64,000 bases of DNA from an uncultured virus (IMG/VR IMGVR_UViG_3300025501_000001) (Duplodnaviria; Heunggongvirae; Uroviricota; Caudoviricetes), in the IMG/VR virus record IMGVR_UViG_3300025501_000001. The stretch is one strand, 5' to 3'. Below the pieces are notes generated by a model. That model was given only the letters and a program-made list of their open reading frames with translations. It searched no databases and had not been told where the DNA came from. The number at the start of each line of letters is the position of its first letter. The first letter of the stretch is position 1. Shown piece after piece: positions 13,842-37,743 of this stretch. Made by a program: the position numbers and the translations under genes.

Positions 13842-15935
13842 GTGATGGCCGGTTCCGTCGCCTATGCCCATCACGCCGCGGACGATGCCATAGAGCCCCT
13901 GGCGCTTCGCGACCTGCACCGCTCTATCATGGTCCCCCGCTCCGATTTCGAGGCGTGGCTCGCCCGCCACGACTGGACGTATCACCAGCTCGCCCGCGCC
14001 GAATTCCCTGCCCCCTATTCCTCCCTCGAGGAGTTCCAGCTCGGCTGCATCTGCGCGGACCCCTATCTCTGGTGCACCATGTTCCTGCGCGAGCCTGAGG
14101 ACCCCGACCATGACGAGCCGTACAACTTCTGGACCTTTCAGATCGAATCGCTCCGCTGGCGCGGCAGTGTCGTCCACAAGGACGCGGCCGAGATAGGCAA
14201 GACGCGCGAGATCGTCGCCCTGTCCCTCTATTACGCCTTTATCACGGCCAACGGCTCGGGTCTTGGAGGCGCTCCGCTCCAGACGCACCTGGACGAGATC
14301 ATCGAGGGCATGTACGACCAGATGCTTTGGAACCCGGACCTCAAGAAATCCCTCGTCCGCTGGAAGAAGCACCCGCACCACGCCTTTTATTTCTCTAATC
14401 ATTTTAAGATGGACTTCCGCCCCTCGGGCCACGACGGTGTAGCCTACAGGGGCGTCCACGTCCGCACGCTGGCATGGCGAGACGAGGCTGCCAAGGACAA
14501 GCACAAGCGCCAGTGGTCGGAATTCTGGAGGGCGCTCAAGCCCGGCTGCGCCGCCCGCATCTACTCCGTGCCGGACGGAGACCGCTCCTGCGAGTTCTAC
14601 AAGCTCGCCGAACGTGCCGCCCGTCAGCAACCGGCAAGCCCACGGAAGGTTCAAGGTTCAGGGTTTACGGATGTTCAAGGTTCAGAGTTCAAGGTTCAGG
14701 GTTCCGAAAGAGAGGATCGTATTAACGTTGAACATCGAACATCGAACATTGAACAGCCCTATGGCACCGCAGTCGATAATGGCTGGGGCGACACCCCTCC
14801 GAAGACAAGAGTGCGAGAGGAGTGTTGTCCATCAAATCTTGATGAGGAGGTCAAAGTTGAATCCTTCGAGGGCGTTTCAAAACATATTAAATCGCTCAAA
14901 TTTCGACTTTTTCAGTGGGGAAAAAGCCTTATGCCGAGTCCTTTCTGGACCCCGGAGCGAAAGAGATTTTACATCGAGCAATTCGGTGGCGAGGATTCTC
15001 CGGAATACAAGCACAACGTGCTCGGACTCGACGGCGATCCGGAGGATACTGTCTTTCCGTGGCACCTCTTCAGAGCATGTATAAAAGAGGTCCCCGATTA
15101 CCACTGCCTCAAGATCACCGTCGACTCCGCCAACAATGAGGTGATGGCCACCGGGTACCGGTGCGAGATTGTCTCCTCTGCCGAGGATATAGTACCTAAA
15201 CAGATATTCCTTCTGGAGACCGTCTACCGCAAATCGACCTTCTTCAACCTTGGCGATGATGGCGAGTCCGAGTTCCGCCGCCTCATCAAGGGCTTCTTCC
15301 TCTATGTCCCCGGCCTCAAGCGCGGCGGGGCAGACCTCGGCTTCTCGGGCGACCCCTCAGAGATCACCGTCACTCTCGTCCTCGGCCGCCGCGAGCGCAA
15401 GGTAGCGCGCCTCTACCTCAAGCACGTCACCTACGACCAGCAGTGCCAGGCTTTAGACGCGCTCGACGACCTCTACGGCGCCCCTTCCGTCTCCCCCGCG
15501 CCCCCCCAGGCCGCCTCCGACATCATCTGGGGCACGGACTTCGGCAACGCCGGCTCCGCCGTCGCCCACGACCTGCAGGGCCTCCCCCAGTATGCCCACA
15601 AGCACTACGAGGACCGCCTGCGCGGCTTCATGTTCGAATCGACCTCCGACAACGTAGACGAGGACGGCAACCCCATCATCGACGCGAAGACGAACAAGCC
15701 CGTCAAGATCACCCTCAAAGAGCTGGCGACGGACCTCCTCGTCAAGAAGATGCAGCGCCAGGAGCTCGAGTATCCTCCGGACCCCGACTACGTCTTCATG
15801 TATCCGAACCATACATGCCACGCGGGCGAGAAGCACAGGATCTACAAAAAAACGGACGACCACCTGATCGACAGCGACCGCGTCCAGAAACTGGCCGGGC
15901 TTTTATCTATGGAGACAGAGGACCTCTTCGCATGA
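13842..15935 (+). CDS. terL: Terminase large subunit with in-frame repeat insertions
   Basis: AAEIGKT Walker A-like, RDEAA Walker B, GADLG and DDHLIDS nuclease motifs. Confidence 0.85.
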   Translation: MMAGSVAYAHHAADDAIEPLALRDLHRSIMVPRSDFEAWLARHDWTYHQLARAEFPAPYSSLEEFQLGCICADPYLWCTMFLREPEDPDHDEPYNFWTFQIESLRWRGSVVHKDAAEIGKTREIVALSLYYAFITANGSGLGGAPLQTHLDEIIEGMYDQMLWNPDLKKSLVRWKKHPHHAFYFSNHFKMDFRPSGHDGVAYRGVHVRTLAWRDEAAKDKHKRQWSEFWRALKPGCAARIYSVPDGDRSCEFYKLAERAARQQPASPRKVQGSGFTDVQGSEFKVQGSEREDRINVEHRTSNIEQPYGTAVDNGWGDTPPKTRVREECCPSNLDEEVKVESFEGVSKHIKSLKFRLFQWGKSLMPSPFWTPERKRFYIEQFGGEDSPEYKHNVLGLDGDPEDTVFPWHLFRACIKEVPDYHCLKITVDSANNEVMATGYRCEIVSSAEDIVPKQIFLLETVYRKSTFFNLGDDGESEFRRLIKGFFLYVPGLKRGGADLGFSGDPSEITVTLVLGRRERKVARLYLKHVTYDQQCQALDALDDLYGAPSVSPAPPQAASDIIWGTDFGNAGSAVAHDLQGLPQYAHKHYEDRLRGFMFESTSDNVDEDGNPIIDAKTNKPVKITLKELATDLLVKKMQRQELEYPPDPDYVFMYPNHTCHAGEKHRIYKKTDDHLIDSDRVQKLAGLLSMETEDLFA
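14646..14755 (+). repeat. Heptamer element in-frame inside TerL
   Basis: Encodes KVQGSGFTDVQGSEFKVQG...NVEHRTSNIEQ. Confidence 0.9.
14784..14831 (+). repeat. CCTCCGAAG..GCGAGAGG hairpin, copy 1 (in TerL)
   Basis: Shared core with 21565-21616 and 55572-55613. Confidence 0.75.
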
Positions 15936-16074: not shown

Positions 16075-18354
16075 GGTTTCGTCCGCCGCGTCCTCCGCGC
16101 CCTTGGCAAGGCACTCCCTGTCTTCCCCGGCGACGTGATGCCGGTAATACCGGCCGGGGCGCTCTCTCCCCAGGGCGGCTGGCAGCTCCGGCCCAACGAC
16201 GGCCAGGGCCTCCTCACCCCCTATTTCGCCAACTATATTGCCCGGAAGGTCGAGCCCTGGTTCTATGAATTCCTTCGCGAGGCAATTCCTGTTATCGACG
16301 CGGCGATCAGGCGGCTCGTCAGCCTCGACGGCCACCTCGTCGTCAAGGGGAACAATGCCGCCCTCGTCGAGGAGATCCGGGAATGGATGCACAACGTCAA
16401 GGTGAACGACATCCAGACGGGCCTCCAGGCGTTCCACCAGAGCCTCACGAACGAGGCTTTCGAGCAGGGCTTCGCCCTCGGAGAATGGGTGGTCAACGAG
16501 GAGCGCGATGACATAACCGGCCTGCGCACCGGCGACTCGAAATTCGTCAGGTTCCAGCGCACCCCCAAAGGCGTCAACATCTTCCAGCGGTCCGACACGG
16601 ACGTCAGCTTCCGCGAGTTGCGCCGGGAGCAGCTCATCTATTTCTCGATCGATAACGAAAACCAAAACCCCTACGGCTGTCCCCTTTTCCGGTCCTGCGA
16701 GTTCGTCGCGAAGATCCTCGCCACCATGCAGAACGCCCTCGGGAACCAGTGGGAAAGGTTCGGGGACCCTTCATTCTCGGTGATCTACAAGACCTCGAAG
16801 AAGGACGGCATGGACCTGGAGGCCCGCCGCAAGACGCTCGAGACCGACCTCAATACGGCGGTCAGGGCGAAGCGCGAGGGCCGCTCCGCCGATTTCGTCC
16901 GCGCCATCGACACCAATTCAGAAATCGAGATAGATGTCATCGGCGCCAAGGGCGAGATCATGTCGGTCGAAGAGCCGGCCCGCCACGTCCTCGAGCAGAT
17001 CATCGCAAAGTCCGGCCTGCCTCCCTGGATGCTCGGCATGCACTGGAGCTCCACCCAGGCCCTCGCCGGCGTCGAGGTAGAAGTACTCAAGTCGGACATC
17101 GCCACGCGCCAGGCGGCGAAGATGCCGCACTTCCACAACCTCGTCCGAAACTTGCTTCTCCTCCGGGGCCGCACCTGGAAGAGGGGCGACTGGTGGCTGG
17201 AGTGGGCGCAGGTCAATCTGGTCGACATCGAAAAACAGGCCCGCGCGCGTTTCCTGAATGCACAGGCGGACATGATGTCGCCCGCGAGCGCGCCCGCAAG
17301 CAAAAGCAGCAAAGGCAGCATAGAGCATAGAGCAAAAGCAGCAGAGAGCATGGAGCAAGGGAAGCATGGAGCAAAGGGCTCTAAAACTCTATGCTCTCTG
17401 CTCTCTGCTCAATGCTCTCACGCGAAGGAACTTCGCCGCTCCGTTGCCTGGCCGGCCCTGGACAAGGTCGAGAACGCCTATGCCGATCGCCTCGCCTCCG
17501 ACTGGTCCGACCTGCACAAGCAGGTCCTCACAATCCTTGAGCTTCCCGCTTCCAAGTCTCCCCATGGAAATGGCCGCGCGGTGGGCGTCATGGGCGAGGC
17601 GGAGACTGAGGCCGTCCTGCCGCTCACCCGCACGTCCTCGGGCGATCTGGCTGTCCGGGCGCAAGGCGCGGGTTCAGGGTTCAACCTTGAACATCGAACC
17701 TTGAACCTTGAACAGTCCTTTGCTCCATGCTCCATGCTCCATGCTTCCTCGGCTAAAGCAGACGACGACCTCTTCTCCTTCACCGAGGAGCAGCGCTCGG
17801 CCATCATGCAGGCCATGAGACAATTCATCGGCCGCTACGATAGCGACGATGCCGACTCGCCGGTGCGCAAATACTACGGCCAGGCATACTCGCTCGGGCT
17901 CATCCAGGCGGCGACGCTTGCCGGCAAGGAGCGCCCGATCCTCGATCTCATCAAGAACAGCCAGGTCTACGATCAACTCTGCACCGACGGCTTTGCCCTC
18001 GTCAAGGACGACGCGACGAAATCCATCGTCCAGAGGATCCTCCCCGAGATGGAAGCCCAGACCCTGGCCGGCACGAACCCTCGCCACGTCGCCACCAGGC
18101 TCGAATCCCTTTTCGGCTCCGCCAACTCCGATTGGGAGCGCCTCGCCCGCACGGAAATGACCTCCGCGGCGGAAGGCGCCAAGCTCGACGAATGGGGCGA
18201 GGAAGGCACGAAGAGGGTTGACTTCGTCCCCTCGCCCGACGCCTGCGAAGAATGTCAGGCCCTCGCCGGAGAGTACGACATCGACTCCTGCCCGATACCC
18301 GGCATTGGCACGCATCCCCGCTGTCGCTGCAGCACCGCCCCGGTGGCGGAATGA
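16048..18354 (+). CDS. Portal protein fused to MuF (gp30-like) head morphogenesis domain; true start uncertain
   Basis: Follows TerL; NPYGCPLF portal-like motif; ERLARTEM...ACEEC..HPRCRC MuF motif. Confidence 0.85.
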   Translation: MNIERRTLNGFVRRVLRALGKALPVFPGDVMPVIPAGALSPQGGWQLRPNDGQGLLTPYFANYIARKVEPWFYEFLREAIPVIDAAIRRLVSLDGHLVVKGNNAALVEEIREWMHNVKVNDIQTGLQAFHQSLTNEAFEQGFALGEWVVNEERDDITGLRTGDSKFVRFQRTPKGVNIFQRSDTDVSFRELRREQLIYFSIDNENQNPYGCPLFRSCEFVAKILATMQNALGNQWERFGDPSFSVIYKTSKKDGMDLEARRKTLETDLNTAVRAKREGRSADFVRAIDTNSEIEIDVIGAKGEIMSVEEPARHVLEQIIAKSGLPPWMLGMHWSSTQALAGVEVEVLKSDIATRQAAKMPHFHNLVRNLLLLRGRTWKRGDWWLEWAQVNLVDIEKQARARFLNAQADMMSPASAPASKSSKGSIEHRAKAAESMEQGKHGAKGSKTLCSLLSAQCSHAKELRRSVAWPALDKVENAYADRLASDWSDLHKQVLTILELPASKSPHGNGRAVGVMGEAETEAVLPLTRTSSGDLAVRAQGAGSGFNLEHRTLNLEQSFAPCSMLHASSAKADDDLFSFTEEQRSAIMQAMRQFIGRYDSDDADSPVRKYYGQAYSLGLIQAATLAGKERPILDLIKNSQVYDQLCTDGFALVKDDATKSIVQRILPEMEAQTLAGTNPRHVATRLESLFGSANSDWERLARTEMTSAAEGAKLDEWGEEGTKRVDFVPSPDACEECQALAGEYDIDSCPIPGIGTHPRCRCSTAPVAE
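17299..17419 (+). repeat. AGCA/TGCT heptamer element in-frame in the portal-MuF linker
   Basis: agcatagagcatag...ctatgctctctgctctctgct. Confidence 0.9.
17671..17746 (+). repeat. Heptamer element in-frame in portal-MuF
   Basis: Encodes GSGFNLEHRTLNLEQSFAPCSMLHA. Confidence 0.85.
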
Positions 18355-18357
18355 ACG

Positions 18358-18474
18358 GCAGCATGGAGCATGGAGCAAAAGCAGCATGGAGCATGGAGAT
18401 GTTCAAGGTTCGAGGTTCAGGGTTCAACGTTGAACATCGAACATTGAACAGCCCTTTGCTCTCTGCTCTCTGCT
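18358..18474 (+). repeat. Nested heptamer element
   Basis: AGCA, GTTC, GAAC, TGCT arms in order. Confidence 0.9.
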
Positions 18475-18492
18475 TCCCACCGGAGACATAAC

Positions 18493-19857
18493 ATGAAAAG
18501 CATACTCTTCATCGACAACAACCTCGCCCTCGACCACGCCGTCAAGCTCGCCGAGGATTACAAGGTCTTCCACTGCCCCGGCGGCTCCGGCGCTTACCCA
18601 TACCTCCAGGACCAGATATCGGGCGACGGCTTCCCGCTCACCTACGTGGAAGACTTCGGCTCGGTCCTCTACGACGTCGACATGGTCTATATCGTCGACT
18701 GCTTCCTCGGGGGCCTCGCGGACAGCCTGCGCAAAAAGGGCATCGCGGTATTCGGACCCTCCGCCGAGTGGACGCGCATCGAGAACGACCGCGTTTACGG
18801 CTGGAAGGCCCTCAAGGGCATGGGCATAGGCGTGCCCGACGGCGAGGTCGTCACCGGGATGAAAGGCGTCCTCGACTTCATCGAAGCCCACGAGGACAAG
18901 GACGAGAAGGACCCTCTCAAGAAGCTCCGCTTTTTCCTCAAGGTCGGCAAATATCGCGGCAACTTCCCGACCAAGGACGTCTCAACCGTCCTCGAGGCCC
19001 AAACTGCCCTCACCCAGGCGAACTTCGGCCCGTATCTCGACTCTCTCTGGTTCCTCATCAACTTGATGTCCCCGGGGATCGAAGTAGGCTTCGACGCCTT
19101 TTTCAACGGCAGGGAATTCATCCGCCCCTTCGCCTACACGATCGAGATCAAGGGCTCCGGGACCACGGCCCACTGGATCGACACGAACGGCATCGAGACA
19201 GAGTTTTTTCAGAAGATGCAGAAGTCCCTCGCCGATTCCGGCTATCGCGGCAACATCTCGATGGAGTTCCTCTGGGACGGCGAGCGCGTCTACGCCATCG
19301 ACCCGACGGCGCGCCTCCCCTTCCCCTGCTCGAGCCTGCAGGCGCACTACATCTCGAATTACAACGAGCTCGTCTGGAAGGTCGCGCACGGTGAGGACGT
19401 GGAGGTCCAGATCTCAGGCGGCTATGATTATGCCAGCCAGATCACGGTAGCGACCGACGACGATAAGCTCTTCCGCGCCATCCGCTTCCCGAAGGAACTG
19501 AAGCCCCAGGTCGGCTTCCGCCGCTGCGCTTTCAAGGAAGATGATTACTGGTTCGTCCCGGGGGATACGGTCGTGGCGACGGCCCTCGGCCAGGGCGACA
19601 CGTACCAAGCCTCCCTCGACTCGGCCGGCCGGGTGGCCCGGGAGATCCAGTGCAACAACATTTATTTCGACGGCGATTTTATTCGGGAGATGAACAAAAC
19701 CGTCGAGAAGCTCAACACGCTCGGAAAGGACTTTGCTTTCGGCGGACCGTCGACGGCGCCGCCGGCGAAGAACGCCTCCGACCTCTTGAACTTCGGCCCG
19801 CGCCACCAGAGATCCCGGATGTTCAAGGTTCAAAGTTCAAGGTTCAAGGTTCGGTAA
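18493..19857 (+). CDS. ATP-grasp ligase (PurD/GARS-like)
   Basis: GLADSLRKKGIAVFGPS..IENDR; GYRGNISME; DPTARLPFP. Confidence 0.8.
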   Translation: MKSILFIDNNLALDHAVKLAEDYKVFHCPGGSGAYPYLQDQISGDGFPLTYVEDFGSVLYDVDMVYIVDCFLGGLADSLRKKGIAVFGPSAEWTRIENDRVYGWKALKGMGIGVPDGEVVTGMKGVLDFIEAHEDKDEKDPLKKLRFFLKVGKYRGNFPTKDVSTVLEAQTALTQANFGPYLDSLWFLINLMSPGIEVGFDAFFNGREFIRPFAYTIEIKGSGTTAHWIDTNGIETEFFQKMQKSLADSGYRGNISMEFLWDGERVYAIDPTARLPFPCSSLQAHYISNYNELVWKVAHGEDVEVQISGGYDYASQITVATDDDKLFRAIRFPKELKPQVGFRRCAFKEDDYWFVPGDTVVATALGQGDTYQASLDSAGRVAREIQCNNIYFDGDFIREMNKTVEKLNTLGKDFAFGGPSTAPPAKNASDLLNFGPRHQRSRMFKVQSSRFKVR

Positions 19858-19925
19858 AGAGAAAGGGGTCAAGGCTTACGGATGTTCAAGGTTCAAAGTT
19901 CAAGGTTCAAGGTTCGGTAAAGAGG
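19816..19925 (+). repeat. Two tandem left (GTTC) arms without right arms
   Basis: cggatgttcaaggttcaaagttcaaggttcaaggttcggtaaagag twice. Confidence 0.9.
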
Positions 19926-20255
19926 ATGAGAGTCATCATCACCGAGGAAAACCTTCATCTCGTCGACCAGTACCAGAATTTATGGTTGGCAGAGCAGACC
20001 GCCGCGTGGATGCCCGACGGTACGATTTATCTCTACGCGCCGGCTCCCGAGAACCGGCTGGCACTTCAACGGGCCGGAGCGATCACGCACGAAGCCGTCG
20101 AATACGTCCTCATCCACAAAATAGGTCGTTGCATTTGGTCCGTCTGCTGCAATCTCTCCCATTATTTCTGCAACCTGGTGGAGATTGTGGTTTCGCTCGG
20201 GACGACCTTGACGCTCCGATCAAAGGAGTTTTGGAGCTGGCAAAAATGGACTTAA
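19926..20255 (+). CDS. Hypothetical protein lying between separated element arms
   Basis: MRVIITEEN...ITHEAVEY (HExxE, metallopeptidase-like). Confidence 0.6.
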   Translation: MRVIITEENLHLVDQYQNLWLAEQTAAWMPDGTIYLYAPAPENRLALQRAGAITHEAVEYVLIHKIGRCIWSVCCNLSHYFCNLVEIVVSLGTTLTLRSKEFWSWQKWT

Positions 20256-20260
20256 TGCGA

Positions 20261-20400
20261 GGCGTCCAACCTTGAACATTGAACATAGAACCTTGAACGC
20301 CCCCAAGGCGTCCAACCTTGAACATTGAACATAGAACCTTGAACGCCCCCAAGGGAGGCAACCTTGAACATCGAACATAGAACCGCCCCGCGAAGGGGCA
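20261..20400 (+). repeat. Three right (GAAC) arms without left arms
   Basis: caaccttgaacattgaacatagaaccttgaacgcccccaagg twice plus a variant. Confidence 0.9.
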
Positions 20401-20460
20401 AAAATATTGCAACGATTTACCAGCCCATTTCACTCTTCCGCGCTACAGTGATTTTTAACA

Positions 20461-20522
20461 TAGCTTAAGGTTTGGTAAAGAGGGGGGTTTTAACGTTGAA
20501 CATTGAACATCGAACATTGAAC
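20461..20522 (+). repeat. Partial heptamer element
   Basis: Loop plus ttgaac arm. Confidence 0.8.
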
Positions 20523-20535
20523 GGAGCGTTGATAG

Positions 20536-20661
20536 ATGGCGACTAAGGCCAAGGGTAAAACGGAGAAAATCGGGAAGGTGACCACCGGCAAGAAGAAACA
20601 GTTTGCCGGTCTCGCCGTAGAAGGCGAGAAGGCAGCCACCGCCGCGAAAACGGAGGGTTGA
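20536..20661 (+). CDS. Small basic protein with N-terminus similar to the next gene
   Basis: MATKAKGKT vs MATKAKDKT. Confidence 0.5.
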   Translation: MATKAKGKTEKIGKVTTGKKKQFAGLAVEGEKAATAAKTEG

Positions 20662-20664
20662 CAG

Positions 20665-20946
20665 ATGGCGACCAAAGCGAAGGACAAGACAGGGAAGTTT
20701 ACCAGGGCAACTGCTGCAGCCCCTCCCCGCTCCCCCGCCGCTCCTCGCTCCGGCGCCGTCAGCGGCTCGGACATCGTGGCCGCCATTGACGCGGAAGACC
20801 GGAAAAAACAGGACGCCCGGGACCTCGCGGCCCTGGAGGCCAAGGAGGCCGCGAAGAAGGAAGTGCCCCTCCCCGCCGCCAGCTCCGGCGCCGTCCGCGG
20901 CCAGGACGTCATTAAAACACTGCGGCAAAAAGGGATGAAGATATGA
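20665..20946 (+). CDS. Hypothetical protein
   Basis: GGAGG SD; stop overlaps next ATG. Confidence 0.6.
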   Translation: MATKAKDKTGKFTRATAAAPPRSPAAPRSGAVSGSDIVAAIDAEDRKKQDARDLAALEAKEAAKKEVPLPAASSGAVRGQDVIKTLRQKGMKI

Positions 20947-22562
20947 AAACCGGGATAAAGACCTTTCGCTTTATGGGGTCGAAGCAGGACAGCGCCGCCG
21001 GCGCCGATACCACCCCCACCGCCGAGCAGCTCGCGAAGATCAACCTGCTCACCAAGCGCGCCTTCGCGGCAGACGAGCTTTACGTGCGCCAGATGCGCCT
21101 CGCCCACAACGCCATAGACAGGGACGAGGAGCGGTTTACCGAGGGGATGATCGCGAACTTTGCGGCGACCGCCGTTAGAAAGACGCTCCTCATGGACCAC
21201 GACAAGTACGATACCTCCCGGAGCGCCCTGGGCAAGTTCTTTGACGTCGAGATCGAGAAAATGTCTCCTGCGGAAGCCGAAAAGGCGACCGGGGAGACCT
21301 TCAGGCTCCCCCCTACCGTCGACCAGGTCATGTTCCTCAGCCCGTGGTATTACATCCCCAGGGCCGCCGTCGACAAGCAGACGATCGTGAAGATCGACGC
21401 GGGCGTCTTCGATTTTACCTCCATCGGCTTCCGCGCGGAGACGCTCGTGCCCGTATGCGACGACATGGGCAACCACCTCTATTGCGAGTACCGGGGCAGG
21501 GGCGAGATGACCGAAGGGTCCTACGTCTACCTCGGGGCCCAGCAGGGCGCATCGTCCAAGGAATTGGGGGGGGGAAACCCCTCCGAAGGACAAGAGGCGA
21601 GAGGCGTGTCCCCCCATCCGCTTTACGAGAAAAGGGTCGTCGCCTTTCACACGACGCCAATGGCGGACCCCCGCACTGCATGGGACGGCGCGGCCTCCCG
21701 GGCAGCGGTCGCGAAGTGGGCATCTTCCGACGGCTCCGGCGACAAAGACAAGGTCGACTGGACGAAGTATGCGAAGGCCTTCGCCTGGTTCGACGACCAG
21801 AACCCTCACGCCTTCGGCTCTTACAAGCTCCCCCATCACGACGTCGTCAGCGGGGAGCTCCGGGTCGTCTGGAACGGCGTCCACGGCGCCATGGCCGCCC
21901 TTCACGGCGGCAGGGGAGGCGTCGACATCCCGGCCGCCGACCAGGACGGCGTCTACAATCACCTGTCCAAAGAATATGCGCTGTTCAAACAGACCCCTCC
22001 TCCAAAGGGACTCGATTTTGAGGATTGGGGCGAAGAATACAAAAATCCCGACAAAGGAGGGACCGGAACCATGAAGAACCTGGTCGCAAAACTAGCGGCA
22101 GCTTTCGGCAAGGCATTCACCGAAGACGAGGAAAAACTCTTTGGCGAAATAAAGGCGCTCGTTGAAGCGAAGGACACCGAGGTAGGCACGCAGAAAACGA
22201 GAATCGCCGAGTTCGAGGCGCGCATCGCGGCGCTTACCCCGCTGGCCGATGACGGCAAGGCCTACCGCGACGGCCTCGTCACGTCGTACGTGATGTATAA
22301 GGCGAAGCTCGGAGAATGCGCGGAGACGCCGGAGGCCCAGAAGGTCGTCAAGGACGTGATCGTCGCTTACCCCGTCGATTTCCTGAAATCCGAGGTCGCC
22401 CACCTCCAGGCCCGGGTAAACGAGAAATTCCCGAAGACCAAGGGCGAGCTGAACGGCGACATGCGGCAGGACAAGACCGGGGAGGGCGGCGAGGCCAAGA
22501 GCTGGAAGGAAGACAACCCGCTCGTCCCGAAAGAGACGAAAGAAGCGGTGACGACCGCGTAA
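20943..22562 (+). CDS. Prohead protease/scaffold protein
   Basis: IDRDEERF, LMDHD, TSIGF, EGSYVYLGAQ; coiled-coil C-terminus. Confidence 0.8.
   Translation: MKTGIKTFRFMGSKQDSAAGADTTPTAEQLAKINLLTKRAFAADELYVRQMRLAHNAIDRDEERFTEGMIANFAATAVRKTLLMDHDKYDTSRSALGKFFDVEIEKMSPAEAEKATGETFRLPPTVDQVMFLSPWYYIPRAAVDKQTIVKIDAGVFDFTSIGFRAETLVPVCDDMGNHLYCEYRGRGEMTEGSYVYLGAQQGASSKELGGGNPSEGQEARGVSPHPLYEKRVVAFHTTPMADPRTAWDGAASRAAVAKWASSDGSGDKDKVDWTKYAKAFAWFDDQNPHAFGSYKLPHHDVVSGELRVVWNGVHGAMAALHGGRGGVDIPAADQDGVYNHLSKEYALFKQTPPPKGLDFEDWGEEYKNPDKGGTGTMKNLVAKLAAAFGKAFTEDEEKLFGEIKALVEAKDTEVGTQKTRIAEFEARIAALTPLADDGKAYRDGLVTSYVMYKAKLGECAETPEAQKVVKDVIVAYPVDFLKSEVAHLQARVNEKFPKTKGELNGDMRQDKTGEGGEAKSWKEDNPLVPKETKEAVTTA
21565..21616 (+). 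repeat. CCTCCGAAG..GCGAGAGG hairpin, copy 2 (in protease)
   Basis: gggggaaacccctccgaaggacaagaggcgagaggcgtgtccccc. Confidence 0.75.
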
Positions 22563-22587
22563 CAAAGAAAATAAAGGAGGATAGAAC

Positions 22588-23346
22588 ATGAGCCTTGCGA
22601 TAATAAAAGATGAAATGCGGAACGTGCGGACCCTGGCCCTGGCTAATGGATCGGCCGTAGTCGCCAACCAGATCGTCCTCCAGAACGCAATTGTCCTGGT
22701 CGCCCTGCTCGCCGCCGGCGCAGGCGTGGAGATCGGCTACATGTACTTCGGGAAAGTAGGGTTCCCGAAGGCGACCGGCGTTTCTTTCGCCCCCGGCGAC
22801 GATTGCTACTGGGACAACAACGCGAGCAACATAACGACCACGCCCGCCGGCAACACGCTCTGCGGCATATGCCTGCTGCAGAACCAGAACGCGGACACCG
22901 AGATCGTGATGATGCTTTACCCCTACGCCGTGTTCGGCACCGACGCCGTCGCCCAGTCCAAGGCGACAAGCGCCGCCGCCCTCGTCTCCACGGCCGAGAG
23001 CCAGGCCGTATCCGTCGCGACGACCGAGTCGACGAACAAGAGCATCGCGGACAGCAAGGCGGCCTCTCTGGCAACTCAGGTCTCAAGCGGGAACTCCGCC
23101 GCGCTCTCGGAAGCCGCATCCGTGGCAACTCAGGTCTCAAGCGGAAACTCTGCCGCGCTATCCGAGGCGGCCTCCGTCGTGGCCCAGGATTCCGCCGGCA
23201 ATTCTGCCAACGCAAGCGCCGCCGCGTCGGCAGCCGCCTCGCTGGCGGCACAGGTGTCCGCAGCCATATCGACGGCCCTCGTTGCCTCCGCTGCCATGAG
23301 CAAGCTGGACAGCGCGGCCAAGTCCGCCACATGGAGCGGGTTTTAA
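22588..23346 (+). CDS. DUF2190-like capsid cement protein with Ser/Ala-rich repeat tail
   Basis: FPKATGVSFAPGDDCYWDN..TTTPAGNTLCG; ATQVSSGNSAALSEAASV repeats. Confidence 0.7.
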   Translation: MSLAIIKDEMRNVRTLALANGSAVVANQIVLQNAIVLVALLAAGAGVEIGYMYFGKVGFPKATGVSFAPGDDCYWDNNASNITTTPAGNTLCGICLLQNQNADTEIVMMLYPYAVFGTDAVAQSKATSAAALVSTAESQAVSVATTESTNKSIADSKAASLATQVSSGNSAALSEAASVATQVSSGNSAALSEAASVVAQDSAGNSANASAAASAAASLAAQVSAAISTALVASAAMSKLDSAAKSATWSGF

Positions 23347-23347
23347 A

Positions 23348-23475
23348 AGCAGCATAGAGCAAGAGCAGCATGGAGCATAGAGCATAGAGATGTTCAAGGT
23401 TCAGAGTTCAAAGTTCAGGGTTCAGGAAAGGGAGGATGGTTTTAACGTTGAACATCGAACATTGAACCTTGAACA
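23348..23475 (+). repeat. Heptamer element
   Basis: AGCA, GTTC and GAAC arms. Confidence 0.9.
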
Positions 23476-23493
23476 GCCTTTTGGAGCGCAGCG

Positions 23494-24471
23494 GTGAAGA
23501 TAGCCCACTGGACGATTACGAACAACTCAGGGATGCATCACGTAGCCGCATCCCTGATGAAGGCGGAGCTCCTGGCCGGCATGCACTCGTGCCTTGTCGA
23601 TCCCCAGGGCCCCCAGTCCGGCTACGACATCGCCGAAGACGCGGACGTCCACGTGATCCACACGCATTTCCCGGACGCGATGAGGAAGAGGATCTCGAAG
23701 CCCCTCAGGCTGGTATGGGTCGCCCACGGCTCCGTGGAGCATTCCTTCCAGTCCTCCGTCGAGGCCACGAGCAACAAAGGCTACGGCGCCGGCGACGGCT
23801 GGATGCTCAACCAATACTGGCTGCAGCACGCGGACGCGGCAGTGACGTTCTGGGACCGCCAGGCGGCGATATGGCAGTCCCTCTGCGACAAAAATATGAC
23901 GGTGCGCCTCATCCCCATGGGCGTGGAAAAGACGTTCTGGAAGCCCGTCGAGAGCCGCGGCAAATACCTCGGGGACGTGAGCCTCTTCACGGCGGAGAAT
24001 TGCCACTACATGAAGTGGCCCCTCGACCTCTTTATCGCGTGGCCGTGGGTATGGCCCGAGGTACCCGGCAGCTTCCTCCACGTCGCCTATCTTCCCAACA
24101 ATCTGCACCGTTGGTTCTTTCCCCTCATCAACCGCAACGGTGCGGCTTTCCATTCCGTGGTGAGCGGCATCTATTTCAGCCCGGAAGAGCTGCGCAACGC
24201 CTTCTGCTCGACCGATTATTTCATCGGCCTCGTCAGGTACGGCGATTTCAACCGCCTCTGCCTGGAGGCGAACGCCTCGGGCGCAAAGACGATCTCCTAC
24301 CGCGGCAATCCCTATTCCGATTATTGGATCTCCGAAGGCGACCAGCGGGAGATGGCCAAAGAGCTCGTTGCGATACTCAAAGGCGATGTCGAGCCCAGGC
24401 AGAAAGAGACGGTCCCCGACATCGGCGCGACGGCCACGGCAATGATCCAGGTGTATCAGGAGATCCTATGA
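23494..24471 (+). CDS. Glycosyltransferase (GT-B/GT4-like)
   Basis: MKIAH..SGM, IPMGVE, LEANASGAKTI. Confidence 0.75.
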   Translation: MKIAHWTITNNSGMHHVAASLMKAELLAGMHSCLVDPQGPQSGYDIAEDADVHVIHTHFPDAMRKRISKPLRLVWVAHGSVEHSFQSSVEATSNKGYGAGDGWMLNQYWLQHADAAVTFWDRQAAIWQSLCDKNMTVRLIPMGVEKTFWKPVESRGKYLGDVSLFTAENCHYMKWPLDLFIAWPWVWPEVPGSFLHVAYLPNNLHRWFFPLINRNGAAFHSVVSGIYFSPEELRNAFCSTDYFIGLVRYGDFNRLCLEANASGAKTISYRGNPYSDYWISEGDQREMAKELVAILKGDVEPRQKETVPDIGATATAMIQVYQEIL

Positions 24472-24472
24472 G

Positions 24473-24560
24473 AAGGTTCAAGGTTCAGAGTTCAAAGTTC
24501 AAGGTTCGGGAGAGAGGATGAGGGTCTTAACATTGAACGTTGAACATCGAACATTGAACA
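24473..24560 (+). repeat. Heptamer element overlapping the acetyltransferase start
   Basis: GTTC arm, loop containing ATG, GAAC arm. Confidence 0.9.
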
Positions 24561-25183
24561 GTCCTTTGAAGGTGCTGAATGAAAAACTCAAGGTTATCTT
24601 CGGGGGCCGACCCGAATCTCATGGGACGCCCGCCGGTAATTCTGGTAACGTCGAATCCGCACACAACCGTTATCGGCCCGCAAAGATCGGCCGGGGGACG
24701 CGCATCGAGCCCACGGCCGTCATCCAGGAAGGCTGCGAAATAGGCGAAGACTGCTTCATCGGCCATTACGTCGTGATGCGGCCGGGGACGAAGATCGGCA
24801 ACAGGACCGTCATCGGCCACCTGACCGTCTTCGAGGGAGAATGCTCGGTCGGGGACGATTGCCTCATCCACGCCCAGTGCCACATCACGAAAGGCGCGAC
24901 CATCGGGGACAAGGTTTTCATCGCCCCGGGCTTCATCGGCGCGAACGACCCCGACATGCTCCACCAGCGGCGCCACCTCAAAGAGTTCGTGCCGAAAGGC
25001 TACACGATCAAAAGGGGCGCCAGGATCGCGATAGGGGTCCTCGTACTGCCGGGCGTGACCATAGGGGAAAATGCGGTGGTCGGCGCCGGCGCGATCGTGA
25101 CGAAAAACGTGCCGCCCTTCGCGGTCGTCTATGGCGCTCCAGGGCGGGTCAGGGGACTCGTGAACGAAGAGGAGATCATATGA
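24518..25183 (+). CDS. Hexapeptide-repeat acyltransferase
   Basis: IGEDCFIG, IGDKVFIAPG, GENAVVGAGAIVTKNVP. Confidence 0.9.
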   Translation: MRVLTLNVEHRTLNSPLKVLNEKLKVIFGGRPESHGTPAGNSGNVESAHNRYRPAKIGRGTRIEPTAVIQEGCEIGEDCFIGHYVVMRPGTKIGNRTVIGHLTVFEGECSVGDDCLIHAQCHITKGATIGDKVFIAPGFIGANDPDMLHQRRHLKEFVPKGYTIKRGARIAIGVLVLPGVTIGENAVVGAGAIVTKNVPPFAVVYGAPGRVRGLVNEEEII

Positions 25184-25237
25184 GGACCTAGAAGAAAACC
25201 GGGCCATCTGAAGGTCTGATCAACCCGAGGATAAATC

Positions 25238-25283
25238 AAGGAAGGCTGTTGGGAGCCCAACCTCTCGCAGCCTTCCTTTTTTT
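25238..25283 (+). terminator. Terminator-like hairpin inside a larger structure
   Basis: AAGGAAGGCTG...CAGCCTTCCTT followed by a T run. Confidence 0.55.
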
Positions 25284-25346
25284 GGCCCTGACATAAACGG
25301 CAAGCCGGGAACGGAGCCACACCTCTTCGAGGAATGGCACCGCAAC

Positions 25347-25478
25347 ATGTTTAAGGTTCAGGGTTCAGGGATGTTCAAAGTTCAAGGTTCAAAGTTCAAG
25401 GTTTTAAAAAAGATCGAGGTTCAACATTGAACGTTGAACATAGAACCTTGAACAGCCCCGAAGGGGCAACATTGAACA
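25347..25478 (+). repeat. Heptamer element
   Basis: GTTC/GAAC arms with GCCCCGAAGGGGC spacer. Confidence 0.9.
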
Positions 25479-25520
25479 GCGCATAAACGCGAAATCGATC
25501 AAAGGAGGGCACAGAAGGCC

Positions 25521-26492
25521 ATGGAACTCTACGGAAAGAAAATTTTCGACTGGAAAAAGATTGACGGCATCCCGCAGACGGAGCGCAGGGACGCGATCGT
25601 CGCCGCGCTGAATACGTTCATCAAGGGGATTCAGGCCTCGAAGGTGCCCGGCCTGGCCTATCAGGGCCAGAAGATCTCCGCCGCCGACCCGAACTTGATG
25701 GGGCCGGTCCCTGTCATCCTCGTCATGAGCGATACGATCAAGTTCCCCGATCGCGGGTACGAGATGCTCTTCGACGAGGTCGACATGCGGGCGAGCCAGA
25801 TCGACAGCTTCGACATGCTCGACGTGACGGGCGGCGTGACCTTCTACCAGCGCCAGCCGGGCGAGGAAGCGAGCTTGTCGAACATCCCGACCTCCGCCCT
25901 CACGAACGTCGGCATGCTCCGGTTCATCGGGGGCTACAACCTGCTCGACGACTGGATCCGCTTCAATAAGTATTACCTCATCGACGACCTGGCCGCCGAT
26001 ACCGTCCGCAGGTGGTTCGACAAGAAGGCCGTGATCTTCTACGGGCTTTTGGCGGCCCTCGCCGCCGGCATCAACCAGGCTTACGTTACGGACGATGTCA
26101 CCACGATCAACACCGCCTGCGCCAACATCCTGGTCAACCTCCAGGCCGCCGGCTACCCGGTCGACGAGAACTCGATCTTCACGATCACCTGCAACCCGAC
26201 GCTGAGAGGCCGGGTCCTCCGGGCCATGGCATCGAGCTTTTCGATGCCGAATGTGAACGCCAACCAGGTCGTCTACAACATCGGCACGGTGATCACCACG
26301 ACGAAGATTGCGAACACGTCATACTACGTCTCCCTGCCCGGCGGGAAGAACAAGCGCGGCGAGTGGGAGGACCTGAACCTGAGGCCCCCGCAGCGGAACG
26401 AGCTGGTGCTGGGCGCCGCCTACGTCTGGACCGGCGCATACAACGGCATCATCGGAGAGGCGCTGCAGCACCAGAGGTGCGCGCTGGCGTAA
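25521..26492 (+). CDS. Major capsid protein (probable)
   Basis: Synteny, 323 aa, strong SD. Confidence 0.7.
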   Translation: MELYGKKIFDWKKIDGIPQTERRDAIVAALNTFIKGIQASKVPGLAYQGQKISAADPNLMGPVPVILVMSDTIKFPDRGYEMLFDEVDMRASQIDSFDMLDVTGGVTFYQRQPGEEASLSNIPTSALTNVGMLRFIGGYNLLDDWIRFNKYYLIDDLAADTVRRWFDKKAVIFYGLLAALAAGINQAYVTDDVTTINTACANILVNLQAAGYPVDENSIFTITCNPTLRGRVLRAMASSFSMPNVNANQVVYNIGTVITTTKIANTSYYVSLPGGKNKRGEWEDLNLRPPQRNELVLGAAYVWTGAYNGIIGEALQHQRCALA

Positions 26493-26648: not shown

Positions 26649-26822
26649 ATGGAAGGCGAGAGAACTGATATCGACGGCTATGGCGATGGGGCCCCCGGAA
26701 CGGTCGACTATCCTAACGTGACGGACGGCAACATGGACGAAGGCGACGGCACGGACCCCGAGGACAACGGCGGGGATAACGGCGGAGACGACGGGACGGA
26801 CGACGGCACCGACGACGAATAG
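26649..26822 (+). CDS. 57-aa highly acidic Asp/Gly-rich peptide
   Basis: AAGGAGG SD; MEGERTDIDG...DDGTDDGTDDE. Confidence 0.6.
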   Translation: MEGERTDIDGYGDGAPGTVDYPNVTDGNMDEGDGTDPEDNGGDNGGDDGTDDGTDDE

Positions 26823-26942: not shown

Positions 26943-27401
26943 ATGATTAACGCATCCGACATCATCGGCCCGAGCGGTATGGGCTTCACCAAGGAGATAT
27001 TCGATATCCCCGACGACGACGGTTTTACCACGTTCGTCCTCGGGGTCATTACCGAACAGTCCACCCTGCTCGAAGGCAGGGTCGGGGACCTGGTCTATAA
27101 CTCGACGGTCGCTCCGACGCCCACGCAGGTCGCGCGGGTGGAAAAATGCCTTACCGCCGCCGAGCTGCTCGACAGGCGCATCAACAAGCGCCTGGTGAAC
27201 GTCCTCGCCGCCGGCCAGGAGTTCGATGTCAAATCCGAAACGAAGCAGCGGGACGACTACCGGGCCGAGGCGGAGAGGATCATCAACCAGAACCTGCTCG
27301 TGCTGACCACCAGCAGGGGCACCGAATCGGGCGACTTCGCCTCCGGCGTGCTCGTGACGACGCACTTCCGCCGGCGTGAAGGGTTTTTATGGGGACGATG
27401 A
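26943..27401 (+). CDS. Putative head-tail adaptor
   Basis: Synteny after capsid. Confidence 0.55.
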   Translation: MINASDIIGPSGMGFTKEIFDIPDDDGFTTFVLGVITEQSTLLEGRVGDLVYNSTVAPTPTQVARVEKCLTAAELLDRRINKRLVNVLAAGQEFDVKSETKQRDDYRAEAERIINQNLLVLTTSRGTESGDFASGVLVTTHFRRREGFLWGR

Positions 27402-31830: not shown

Positions 31831-32337
31831 ATGAGACCGGAAGATATGAAATACTTCCATGCGCTTTCTGCGGACCGAATCGGCGGGGAGACGGTCTTCC
31901 TCGAGGCCGGCGGGGAGAGCACGGAAGGCAAAGTCGCCGTGGCCTGGGTAGTCAAGAACCGCGTCGACCATCCGAGCTTTCAGGGCAACGACGTGGCTAC
32001 GGTCTGCTTTCACCAGGCGGCCTTCAGCTGCTACCTCTCGGTCGACAACCCCGAGTATCTCAAGGCCCGGGCCATCGCCCAGAACTTCGACGCCTTTGCC
32101 GACCCGAAGACGCACGTCCTCACGCCGTTCAAGTGGGGCCCCGCAGACGCCGGCGCACTCTTTCAGTGTCTCGCGGTTTTCCGGGATGTCTGGGCCGGCA
32201 GGATCCCGAGCCCCTTCTCGACCGGCGACGTTTTCATGTACTACGCCCAGGGCAGCCCGAAGCCTTCCTGGGCGGACAAGTTGCAGCCGGCATCGCCGGC
32301 GCAGATCGGCAAGCATTTGTTCTATCGCGGGCGATAG
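31831..32337 (+). CDS. SleB/Hydrolase_2 endolysin
   Basis: EAGGESTEGKVAVAWVVKNRV, AFSC, PSWA, IGKHLFY. Confidence 0.9.
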   Translation: MRPEDMKYFHALSADRIGGETVFLEAGGESTEGKVAVAWVVKNRVDHPSFQGNDVATVCFHQAAFSCYLSVDNPEYLKARAIAQNFDAFADPKTHVLTPFKWGPADAGALFQCLAVFRDVWAGRIPSPFSTGDVFMYYAQGSPKPSWADKLQPASPAQIGKHLFYRGR

Positions 32338-32340
32338 AAC

Positions 32341-32515
32341 AGCAAAGGCAGCATGGAGCATAGAGATGTTCAAGGTTCAGGGTTCAAGGTTTAAAAACAG
32401 ACGGGGTTTTAACATTGAACACCGAACCTTGAACGGCCTTTTGCTCTCTGCTCTATGCTCTATGCTCCAGAGCGAGCACAGCGAGCGTGCTCCATGCTGC
32501 TTCGAGCGTAGCGAG
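32341..32515 (+). repeat. Fully nested heptamer element
   Basis: AGCA, GTTC, loop, GAAC, TGCT. Confidence 0.9.
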
Positions 32516-36710: not shown

Positions 36711-36919
36711 GAGCAGGGAGCATAGAGGATGTTCAAGGTTCAACAAAGGGCTGTTCAAGGTTCAAGGTTCAGGGTTCAGGGCTTGGGAGGTTTTCAACAT
36801 TGAACTTTGAACTTTGAACATTGAACGCCCCCAAAGGGGGCAACATTGAACATTGAACATAGAACCTTGAACGCCCCCAAAGGGGGCAACATTGAACCTT
36901 GAACATTGAACGTTGAACA
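36711..36919 (+). repeat. Heptamer element with three right arms
   Basis: GAAC arms separated by GCCCCCAAAGGGGGC. Confidence 0.9.
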
Positions 36920-37336: not shown

Positions 37337-37743
37337 CCCTCGCCGCAGGTTTTTGCGGTGAGGGAGAGCCGGTCGAAGTCCTCCCGGGCAACGCGGAAGT
37401 CTGGTCCGTCATCGAGATCTGCGCCGGCCAGTGGAGGACCGCAGTCCAGGCCGTCGCCGGGCAGGGCTTTGTCGAGGTCCGCACGAGCTATCTCGGCTTC
37501 GATCTGCCCGCCGCGCTCGCCGCCGCCCGCTCCCTGGGCATCGTTGCCGGCCCTGCATTCCTCCGCAACCTCCGGACGTTCGAGGCCGAGGTCGTCTCCA
37601 TCCTCGCCGACGGCGGCACGAAGCGCTGCACGCCGGCAAAGCGCAAGGCCTGCGCCTTTCAATACGGCAGTTATTTGGACTGGACATGCGAGCACTGCGA
37701 AGAAAACCCGGCGCGAAGGCGGCCGGCTGAGCATAGAGCGTAG
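37330..37743 (+). CDS. -1 frameshift extension of the chaperone (gpGT-like)
   Basis: Open -1 frame lacking an early start: PGNAEVWSVI..QWR..GFDLPAA. Confidence 0.75.
   Translation, partial: LLALAAGFCGEGEPVEVLPGNAEVWSVIEICAGQWRTAVQAVAGQGFVEVRTSYLGFDLPAALAAARSLGIVAGPAFLRNLRTFEAEVVSILADGGTKRCTPAKRKACAFQYGSYLDWTCEHCEENPARRRPAEHRA

Follow-up and report, generated by a model that had tools for sequence, protein, structure and literature searches.

The 109-aa HExxE gene that lies inside a split heptamer-repeat hairpin of a tailed phage is most probably a long-standing resident partner of the ATP-grasp gene upstream of it, so that the arms would have come to the gene and not the gene with the arms. 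The same gene pair exists without arms in other phages, the start codon of the HExxE gene is the one usual for its family, and the arms are able to pair around the gene. A preliminary description of this DNA had proposed that the hairpin elements captured the gene as cargo. This proposal was not upheld, since the gene is linked to the ATP-grasp gene in arm-less phages, the trees of the two proteins agree and the start is family-typical. Location within a heptamer hairpin does not by itself make a gene cargo. Coordinates given without a record name refer to the window, the whole stretch of 64,000 nt that was analyzed; the parts of the split hairpin and of the comparison copy described below, with their genes, lie on the + strand.

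Layout of the split hairpin

The window is a section of a tailed phage with a GC content of 58%, carrying primase, integrase, portal, head-decoration, tape-measure, and tail genes. The 20 source runs listed as containing its sequence are all of peat, wetland, or soil DNA, with no RNA run among them. Hairpins made of 7-nt repeats are scattered through the phage, their arm words forming two families. When arms not more than 90 nt apart were merged, 31 arm clusters were obtained in the 64-kb window, 27 of them two-sided. The four one-sided clusters are the left pair and the right trio at the HExxE gene, a right arm at 20492 and a cluster at 37730, which belongs to the second repeat family. Most of the 31 clusters have an ORF end within 40 nt and thus lie at gene junctions; a few are in frame within genes, in variable linkers of terminase and portal (14648-14755, 17317-17409, and 17671-17745). 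In two relatives, L173 and L175, the portal linker carries heptamer runs of different words at roughly the same place.

Two left and three right arms bracket the HExxE ORF as originally described, and this split arrangement is unique among the 31 clusters. Upstream lies a PurD-like ATP-grasp gene (18493..19857, 454 aa), the last 14 codons of which are read from the first left arm (19820..19854, five 7-nt units). The following interval (19855..19882) consists of a loop-like purine tract and a linker whose end recurs in other copies; within it fall the ATP-grasp stop codon and the start (ATG) of a mini-ORF of 11 codons, which is read from the second left arm. This arm (19883..19917) is identical to the first, both lying within an exact 46-nt direct repeat (19816-19861 = 19879-19924, 100%). 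The purine tract adjoining the ATG (19918..19925) corresponds, on comparison with the list of element loops, to the 5′ half of a loop, and is followed by the HExxE gene (19926..20255). Downstream of it, a G-rich stretch (20259..20267), compared by eye with the same list, would represent the 3′ half. Three right arms (20268-20299, 20314-20345, and 20360-20384) then form a tandem array (20268..20384) with a spacing of 46 nt and short GC-rich linkers, and a short GC hairpin (20385..20400) is of the type that joins right arms in other copies. A separate element copy (20455..20523) has an intact loop and right arm and a decayed left arm, and its fold was no better than that of shuffled sequences (z +1.2).

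When the region was folded as RNA, the first and second right arms paired with the inner and the outer left arm, respectively, giving a nested stem around the gene (z -6.8; 0 of 100 shuffles were equally good). The left pair and the right trio are neighbors and stand in the correct order. Overlapping contigs tile 19400-20900 in four of four runs, and the read depth of the HExxE gene is near that of its two flanks (110 versus 117/115, 70 versus 79/75, 33 versus 28/29, and 38 versus 30/31), so an assembly artefact is excluded. An excised or closed form of the site was not seen in these four runs. Read joints were considered as candidates for such a form and rejected: in all of those listed the short side measured 42 nt or less, and the inner letters of these joints fit the loops of other copies. 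The borders of the gene share the same four bases on both sides (a 4-nt repeat) and show no 8-nt direct repeat; inverted ends of its own were not found either, the best being 5 nt. No Rfam match was obtained in 18000-26000, the split hairpin not being in an rRNA gene, and its neighbors are phage head genes.

The ATP-grasp gene, the HExxE family, and their arm-less relatives

The ATP-grasp protein gave a weak match to TIGR00877 (purD, E 1e-7), far under the cut-off, and a weak one to GARS_N; no solved structure matched its sequence. Its profile matched in 8 of 22 genomes of the candidate host family (E 1e-43 to 1e-31), far more weakly than phage homologues, and these eight were taken as host PurD on the basis of their match scores.

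The HExxE protein carries the motif H55-E56-x-x-E59. Single-sequence searches returned only the phage itself, or nothing in GenBank phages, and profile searches were needed to find homologues: a full HMMER search gave 10, at 31-44% identity, and a profile search 25 matches, query counted. In an alignment of 16 sequences, no variation was seen at H55, E56, E59, H79, N83, and E86. No family of Pfam, PHROG, or NCBIfam matched. The structure model (pLDDT 90.5) is alpha/beta. Its top Foldseek rows are zincins, weakly matched (best E 0.33, 4jiu), a VIA fold search gave a best Z of 4.8 with zincins at 4.0-4.6, not above background, and the Atlas structure rows include M78 and Zn_peptidase clusters, below the naming bar; neither Foldseek nor VIA gave a fold match above background. 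The model resembles minimal zincins and minigluzincins (Pyrococcus abylysin 4jiu, IrrE/PprI) in size and in its strands, HE helix, and second helix with conserved H and E, but differs in having HExxE, invariant in the 16 sequences, instead of HExxH, and in the weakness of the fold matches. The protein is therefore described as a putative minimal zincin-like metalloprotein of a small phage family, 'zincin-like' being a lead. Judged from fold class and gene linkage, one member of the pair would probably be a ligase and the other its metal-dependent partner, a hydrolase or a binding protein, the two working on a substrate of the virion or of the host. ATP-grasp and HExxE protein together make up a small phage module that has no name as yet and is open to testing.

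Eight distinct loci with a HExxE homologue were distinguished (L015, L016 (= L023 = L177), L017, L176, L178, L179, L180, and L181), and period-7 arms were present at none of them. The homologue directly follows the ATP-grasp gene in L176 (9-nt gap) and L178 (overlapping stop and start), and one small unrelated gene lies between the two in L015 and L016. These four phages, found by searching for the HExxE family (that of L016 also by the ATP-grasp search), have a GC content of 37-48% and no heptamer arms. The preliminary description had named conservation of the gene at this position in relatives without arms as the finding that would refute cargo, and in four arm-less phages homologues do follow the same ATP-grasp gene. 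The remaining four loci have no ATP-grasp gene in the available DNA. Within the closer ATP-grasp clade the HExxE gene was found in five of six phages; within 4 kb of the distant ATP-grasp loci there was no HExxE match at L024-L026 and only a faint one at L027. In the candidate host phylum, the HExxE profile matched in 2 of 151 genomes, without arms and with no ATP-grasp gene within 1.5 kb.

In the ATP-grasp tree the window protein and that of L003 group with L015 (98/96), and in the HExxE tree the window protein also groups with L015, with modest support (92/83). L016 and L176 are sisters in both trees (87/69 for HExxE). The HExxE tree is weakly supported overall, the window protein being in no starred clade, and pairwise identities of the two proteins are not significantly correlated (rho 0.42, p 0.23).

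The closest arm-less relative is the 16.6-kb record L003/L020, which shares nucleotide blocks of 65-83% with the window and an ATP-grasp protein 84% identical in amino acids, and in which no heptamer arms were found. The HExxE gene is absent from L003. The slot after its ATP-grasp gene (L003:948-2736) holds two unrelated and unassigned genes of 159 and 442 aa, and this slot is a variable accessory-gene position. The L003 ATP-grasp protein matches that of the window as far as the first arm and then has a different tail of similar length. Its stop codon overlaps seven bases identical to the first seven of the window HExxE gene, a match that is suggestive only, sitting in a local 10-nt duplication where it could be due to chance. 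In L175 (64-73% nucleotide identity) both the ATP-grasp and the HExxE gene are absent between portal and protease. A relative carrying a closed element at the site in place of the gene, which the cargo proposal had led one to look for, was thus not found among these: in L003, which is without arms, two other genes occupy the site, and from L175 both genes of the pair are missing.

It had also been proposed that the element loop supplies the start codon of the HExxE gene, its start context matching the loop of a copy thought to be empty. The match is real (13 of 14 bases between 19921 and 24513), and at up to two mismatches the 14-mer occurs at these two places only in the window. The copy concerned (24475..24560, fold z -5.7) is, however, not empty but a closed hairpin straddling a gene start: the ATG in its loop opens a left-handed beta-helix acyltransferase gene (24518..25183, 221 aa; Hexapep E 2.5e-35). 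This protein is 36% identical over 119 columns to its syntenic counterpart in the arm-less L020, the start of which has nine bases identical to the 24518 loop. Similarly, 22 of 38 HExxE family proteins (query included) begin in the register of the window protein, and 34 of the 38 carry the N-terminal motif, the second residue being K (20) or R (9) and the third F, V, or I. The loop therefore need not have supplied the start codon, the HExxE ATG being family-typical and the nine bases at 24518 being present without arms. Among the 23 element loops listed, AGAGG occurs in six and GAGGAT in three, one of the latter without an ATG. From these loop counts and the family-typical starts it follows that the 14-nt match is made up of the purine tract of the element and two native Met-Arg-Val starts.

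Two further observations were made around this copy. One is a mini-ORF of 17 codons encoded by the left arm (24468-24521), which opens within the stop codon upstream and closes within the start codon downstream; translational coupling could be relayed across the hairpin in this way, and other junctions look much the same. At the 5′ end of the acyltransferase gene (24579-24650), another frame resembles, by eye, the N-terminal part of the 25521-26492 protein and is possibly a remnant duplicate.

Proposed placement of the arms around the gene

In a phage whose gene junctions have been colonized by the heptamer hairpin element, the pair would be a resident accessory module, consisting of a PurD-like ATP-grasp ligase and a small HExxE zincin-like protein. 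A left half-element, an arm plus purine tract, would have replaced the last 14 ATP-grasp codons up to the HExxE start. Over the second left arm, half loop, and start, 46 of 51 nt agree with the 24476 copy, more than at any other place in the window. The two gene starts (19926 and 24518) share eight of nine bases; such similar starts could have guided copying, and in the simplest view ectopic recombination would have copied the left half between this site and 24476, in one direction or the other. A right half-element would have settled after the HExxE stop, and both sides would then have been expanded by tandem duplication. This half-element route in particular is put forward tentatively, at slightly less than an even chance; as an equal alternative, two whole elements could have landed on either side of the gene and lost their inner arms. 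The HExxE gene would now be looped out of a long RNA stem, as in an ORF-bearing intervening sequence (IVS), and this stem may be an RNase III-type cut site.

Several findings count against a resident gene. The closest relative, L003, lacks it, and the state before the arms was not directly seen in this lineage. The third-position GC of the HExxE gene is below phage core usage (z -3.3; 11 of 21 other window genes tested were equally low or lower), whereas that of the ATP-grasp gene is above it (z +3.4). The same four bases stand at both borders, so that a closed loop without the gene can be pictured, and two other split copies, described below, arose by insertion into a closed hairpin. Counting for it is the lack of inverted ends of its own, at best 5 nt here as against 16 nt (L183) and 11 nt (L165) in those two copies.

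The same findings can be turned into an account by capture, in which the HExxE gene was inserted into the loop of a closed element that stood downstream of the ATP-grasp gene. The insertion would have occurred by recombination at the 4-base microhomology, and the first codons would have been provided or rewritten by the loop. Besides the absence from L003, the GC lower than that of the neighboring gene, and the loop-like halves with the same four bases, this account can draw on a closed copy at 36730-36919, whose arms also number two on the left and three on the right, and on the other genes inside such hairpins, the first in-frame ATG of the L165 passenger ORF lying in an arm. It is nevertheless unlikely: there are about 27 elements, and insertion must have struck exactly the one behind the usual partner of the gene, the trees suggest that the pair was co-inherited, the start is that of the family, arms are present at none of the eight homologue loci, and the excised or closed form was not seen in the four runs, the listed joints having not more than 42 nt on the short side and fitting the loops of other copies. 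That the gene is an old IS1595-type passenger cassette with decayed ends has in its favor that hairpins of this kind contain two such cassettes of about 440 nt, one of them in the window phage itself, and that the end motif common to both was met in the genome G008 at the 3′ end of a gene for an IS1595 transposase. This is largely excluded by the lack of inverted ends (best 5 nt) and of an 8-nt direct repeat, by the absence of the end motif from the HExxE locus, and by a linkage to the ATP-grasp gene that is older than the arms. Hardly credible, finally, is a juxtaposition of unrelated half-repeats by chance, or a mis-assembly. One-sided arms are indeed common elsewhere, 35 of the 77 loci that, among the matches listed, extend 900 nt or more downstream having no right arm, but 27 of the 31 window clusters are two-sided, the arms pair in a nested stem, and contigs of even depth tile the region in all four runs.

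Other genes within heptamer hairpins and known systems compared

A genome scan with the arm word gave at least 123 stretches. Among the matches listed, 77 had at least 900 nt downstream, of which 37 were closed, 35 were without a right arm, and 5 were open; in three of these five open cases the same arm word encloses a four-helix-bundle ORF (TIGR02436). In viral records, two more split copies with passengers of about 440 nt were found. The part of the earlier proposal that foresaw further arm-bracketed genes was thus borne out, and genes do sit in these hairpins; as to their being carried by the element, the two passengers have inverted ends of their own.

One of the two split copies is in another phage (L165:12344-12874), where its neighbors are a DUF6148 gene and a portal gene of the lambda type. 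Its insert (441 nt, GC 48%) has perfect 11-nt inverted ends and an exact 8-nt direct repeat, and the passenger is an orphan 153-aa ORF with a signal-peptide-like N-terminus and its first in-frame ATG in the arm. The other (L183:546-1096; G183:13184-13734) is the second split hairpin of the window phage, about 7 kb past the window end, the first 6,022 nt of this record being the end of the window. Here the insert (about 440 nt, GC 50%) has inverted ends of 16/17 nt, and the passenger is a 135-aa ORF with its own ribosome-binding site and a weak TYW3 match below the cut-off. Both inserts share an end motif that occurs once in 96 genomes, in G008, about 115-130 nt beyond the end of an IS1595-family transposase gene (L205:467-1517); the left end of that element was not found in G008. 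The inserts are best read as IS-type passenger cassettes that would have landed in an A/T-rich hairpin, IS1595-like by the one end matched in the one genome. As both carry their own inverted ends, the arms look like the landing site of these passengers and not their vehicle. Three routes would thus exist side by side: the four-helix-bundle cassette as the usual one, IS1595-like-ended passengers landed in the hairpin, and arms grown around a resident gene. As the two arms can apparently be placed separately, the last of these routes, taken with the 24518 copy and the native start codon in its loop, limits the ways in which the repeats, themselves unexplained, may spread.

Passenger-bearing ISs are linked to IS1595, and IS1595-type target duplications are of about 8 nt. 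The L165 and L183 inserts resemble the mobile insertion cassettes and transporter ISs named in the part of PMC3129680 available in having one passenger gene, short inverted ends, the IS1595-shared end motif, and, in L165, an 8-nt direct repeat. The window HExxE gene differs from such a cassette, being without inverted ends (best 5 nt) and having only a 4-nt flanking repeat.

With the ORF-bearing IVS the split hairpin has in common that its arms pair around a single ORF and that the same arm word encloses the four-helix-bundle ORFs mentioned above. According to the text available for PMC4990558, the 444-nt IVS with S23p in the 23S rRNA of Coxiella burnetii is a gene looped out by complementary terminal arms, and RNase III cutting was shown for it; about 350 nt lie between the arms here. 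Unlike the IVS, the hairpin lies outside rRNA, its arms are heptamer arrays, its ORF is not of the PF05635/TIGR02436 kind (no Pfam or NCBIfam match, alpha/beta model), and gene and arms are not a travelling unit, arms being found at none of the eight homologue loci. PF05635 was not found in the five genomes or records searched, all incomplete. A PHROG scan of 71 window ORFs, which does not bear on PF05635 as such, showed no four-helix-bundle gene.

The arms are to be classed with the paired heptamer repeats known from bacteria, here in a phage variant, with the cargo claim not upheld for the HExxE gene. In the parts of the two reports available, the GGGAATC repeats of Xanthomonas have a 7-nt period and form convergent or inverted pairs (PMC4692102), and the TAACTGA repeats of Beggiatoaceae lie close to start codons (PMC4679880). 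The phage arms share the 7-nt period, the location mostly at gene junctions, the often inverted array pairs, and the frequent proximity to start codons. They differ in their word and in occurring in a phage, as 31 clusters in 64 kb, some of them in frame within linkers of terminase and portal; neither report, in the text available, describes paired arrays that flank a whole gene. A literature search, light on subscription journals and with supplements outside its scope, found nothing on genes inside heptamer hairpins of phages, and a term search of a coevolutionary-mining preprint (10.64898/2026.09.22.753630) gave no heptamer or four-helix terms. The element recurs, loop type included, at junctions between chromosomal genes of one Syntrophorhabdales MAG (L060 / L164:209-341 and 1234-1315). 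These copies are a lead on the host group only, the right-arm pattern having matched in only 1 of 22 genomes of the family of this MAG.

A wider reading would have the element laid as two separate half-arms around intervening host DNA (nine bases at 24518, a whole gene at 19926), making resident genes into IVS-like units that nucleases could excise and the four-helix-bundle cassette machinery could move. If true, the hairpins would be a general gene-shuffling system in phages. This is distinctly improbable, and is hinted at by a 90.7% identical endolysin-like gene between elements and by a displaced small acidic gene. The endolysin-like gene (31831-32365) shows this identity over 535 nt in L165/L167, an otherwise unmatched arm-bearing phage, and has elements on both sides in the window phage and in L165/L167 alike; the flanking arms may be crossover points. 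The small acidic gene (26649-26822) lies between the genes 25521-26492 and 26943-27401 with closed elements on both sides, and in the arm-less G026 its homologue is located two genes further downstream.
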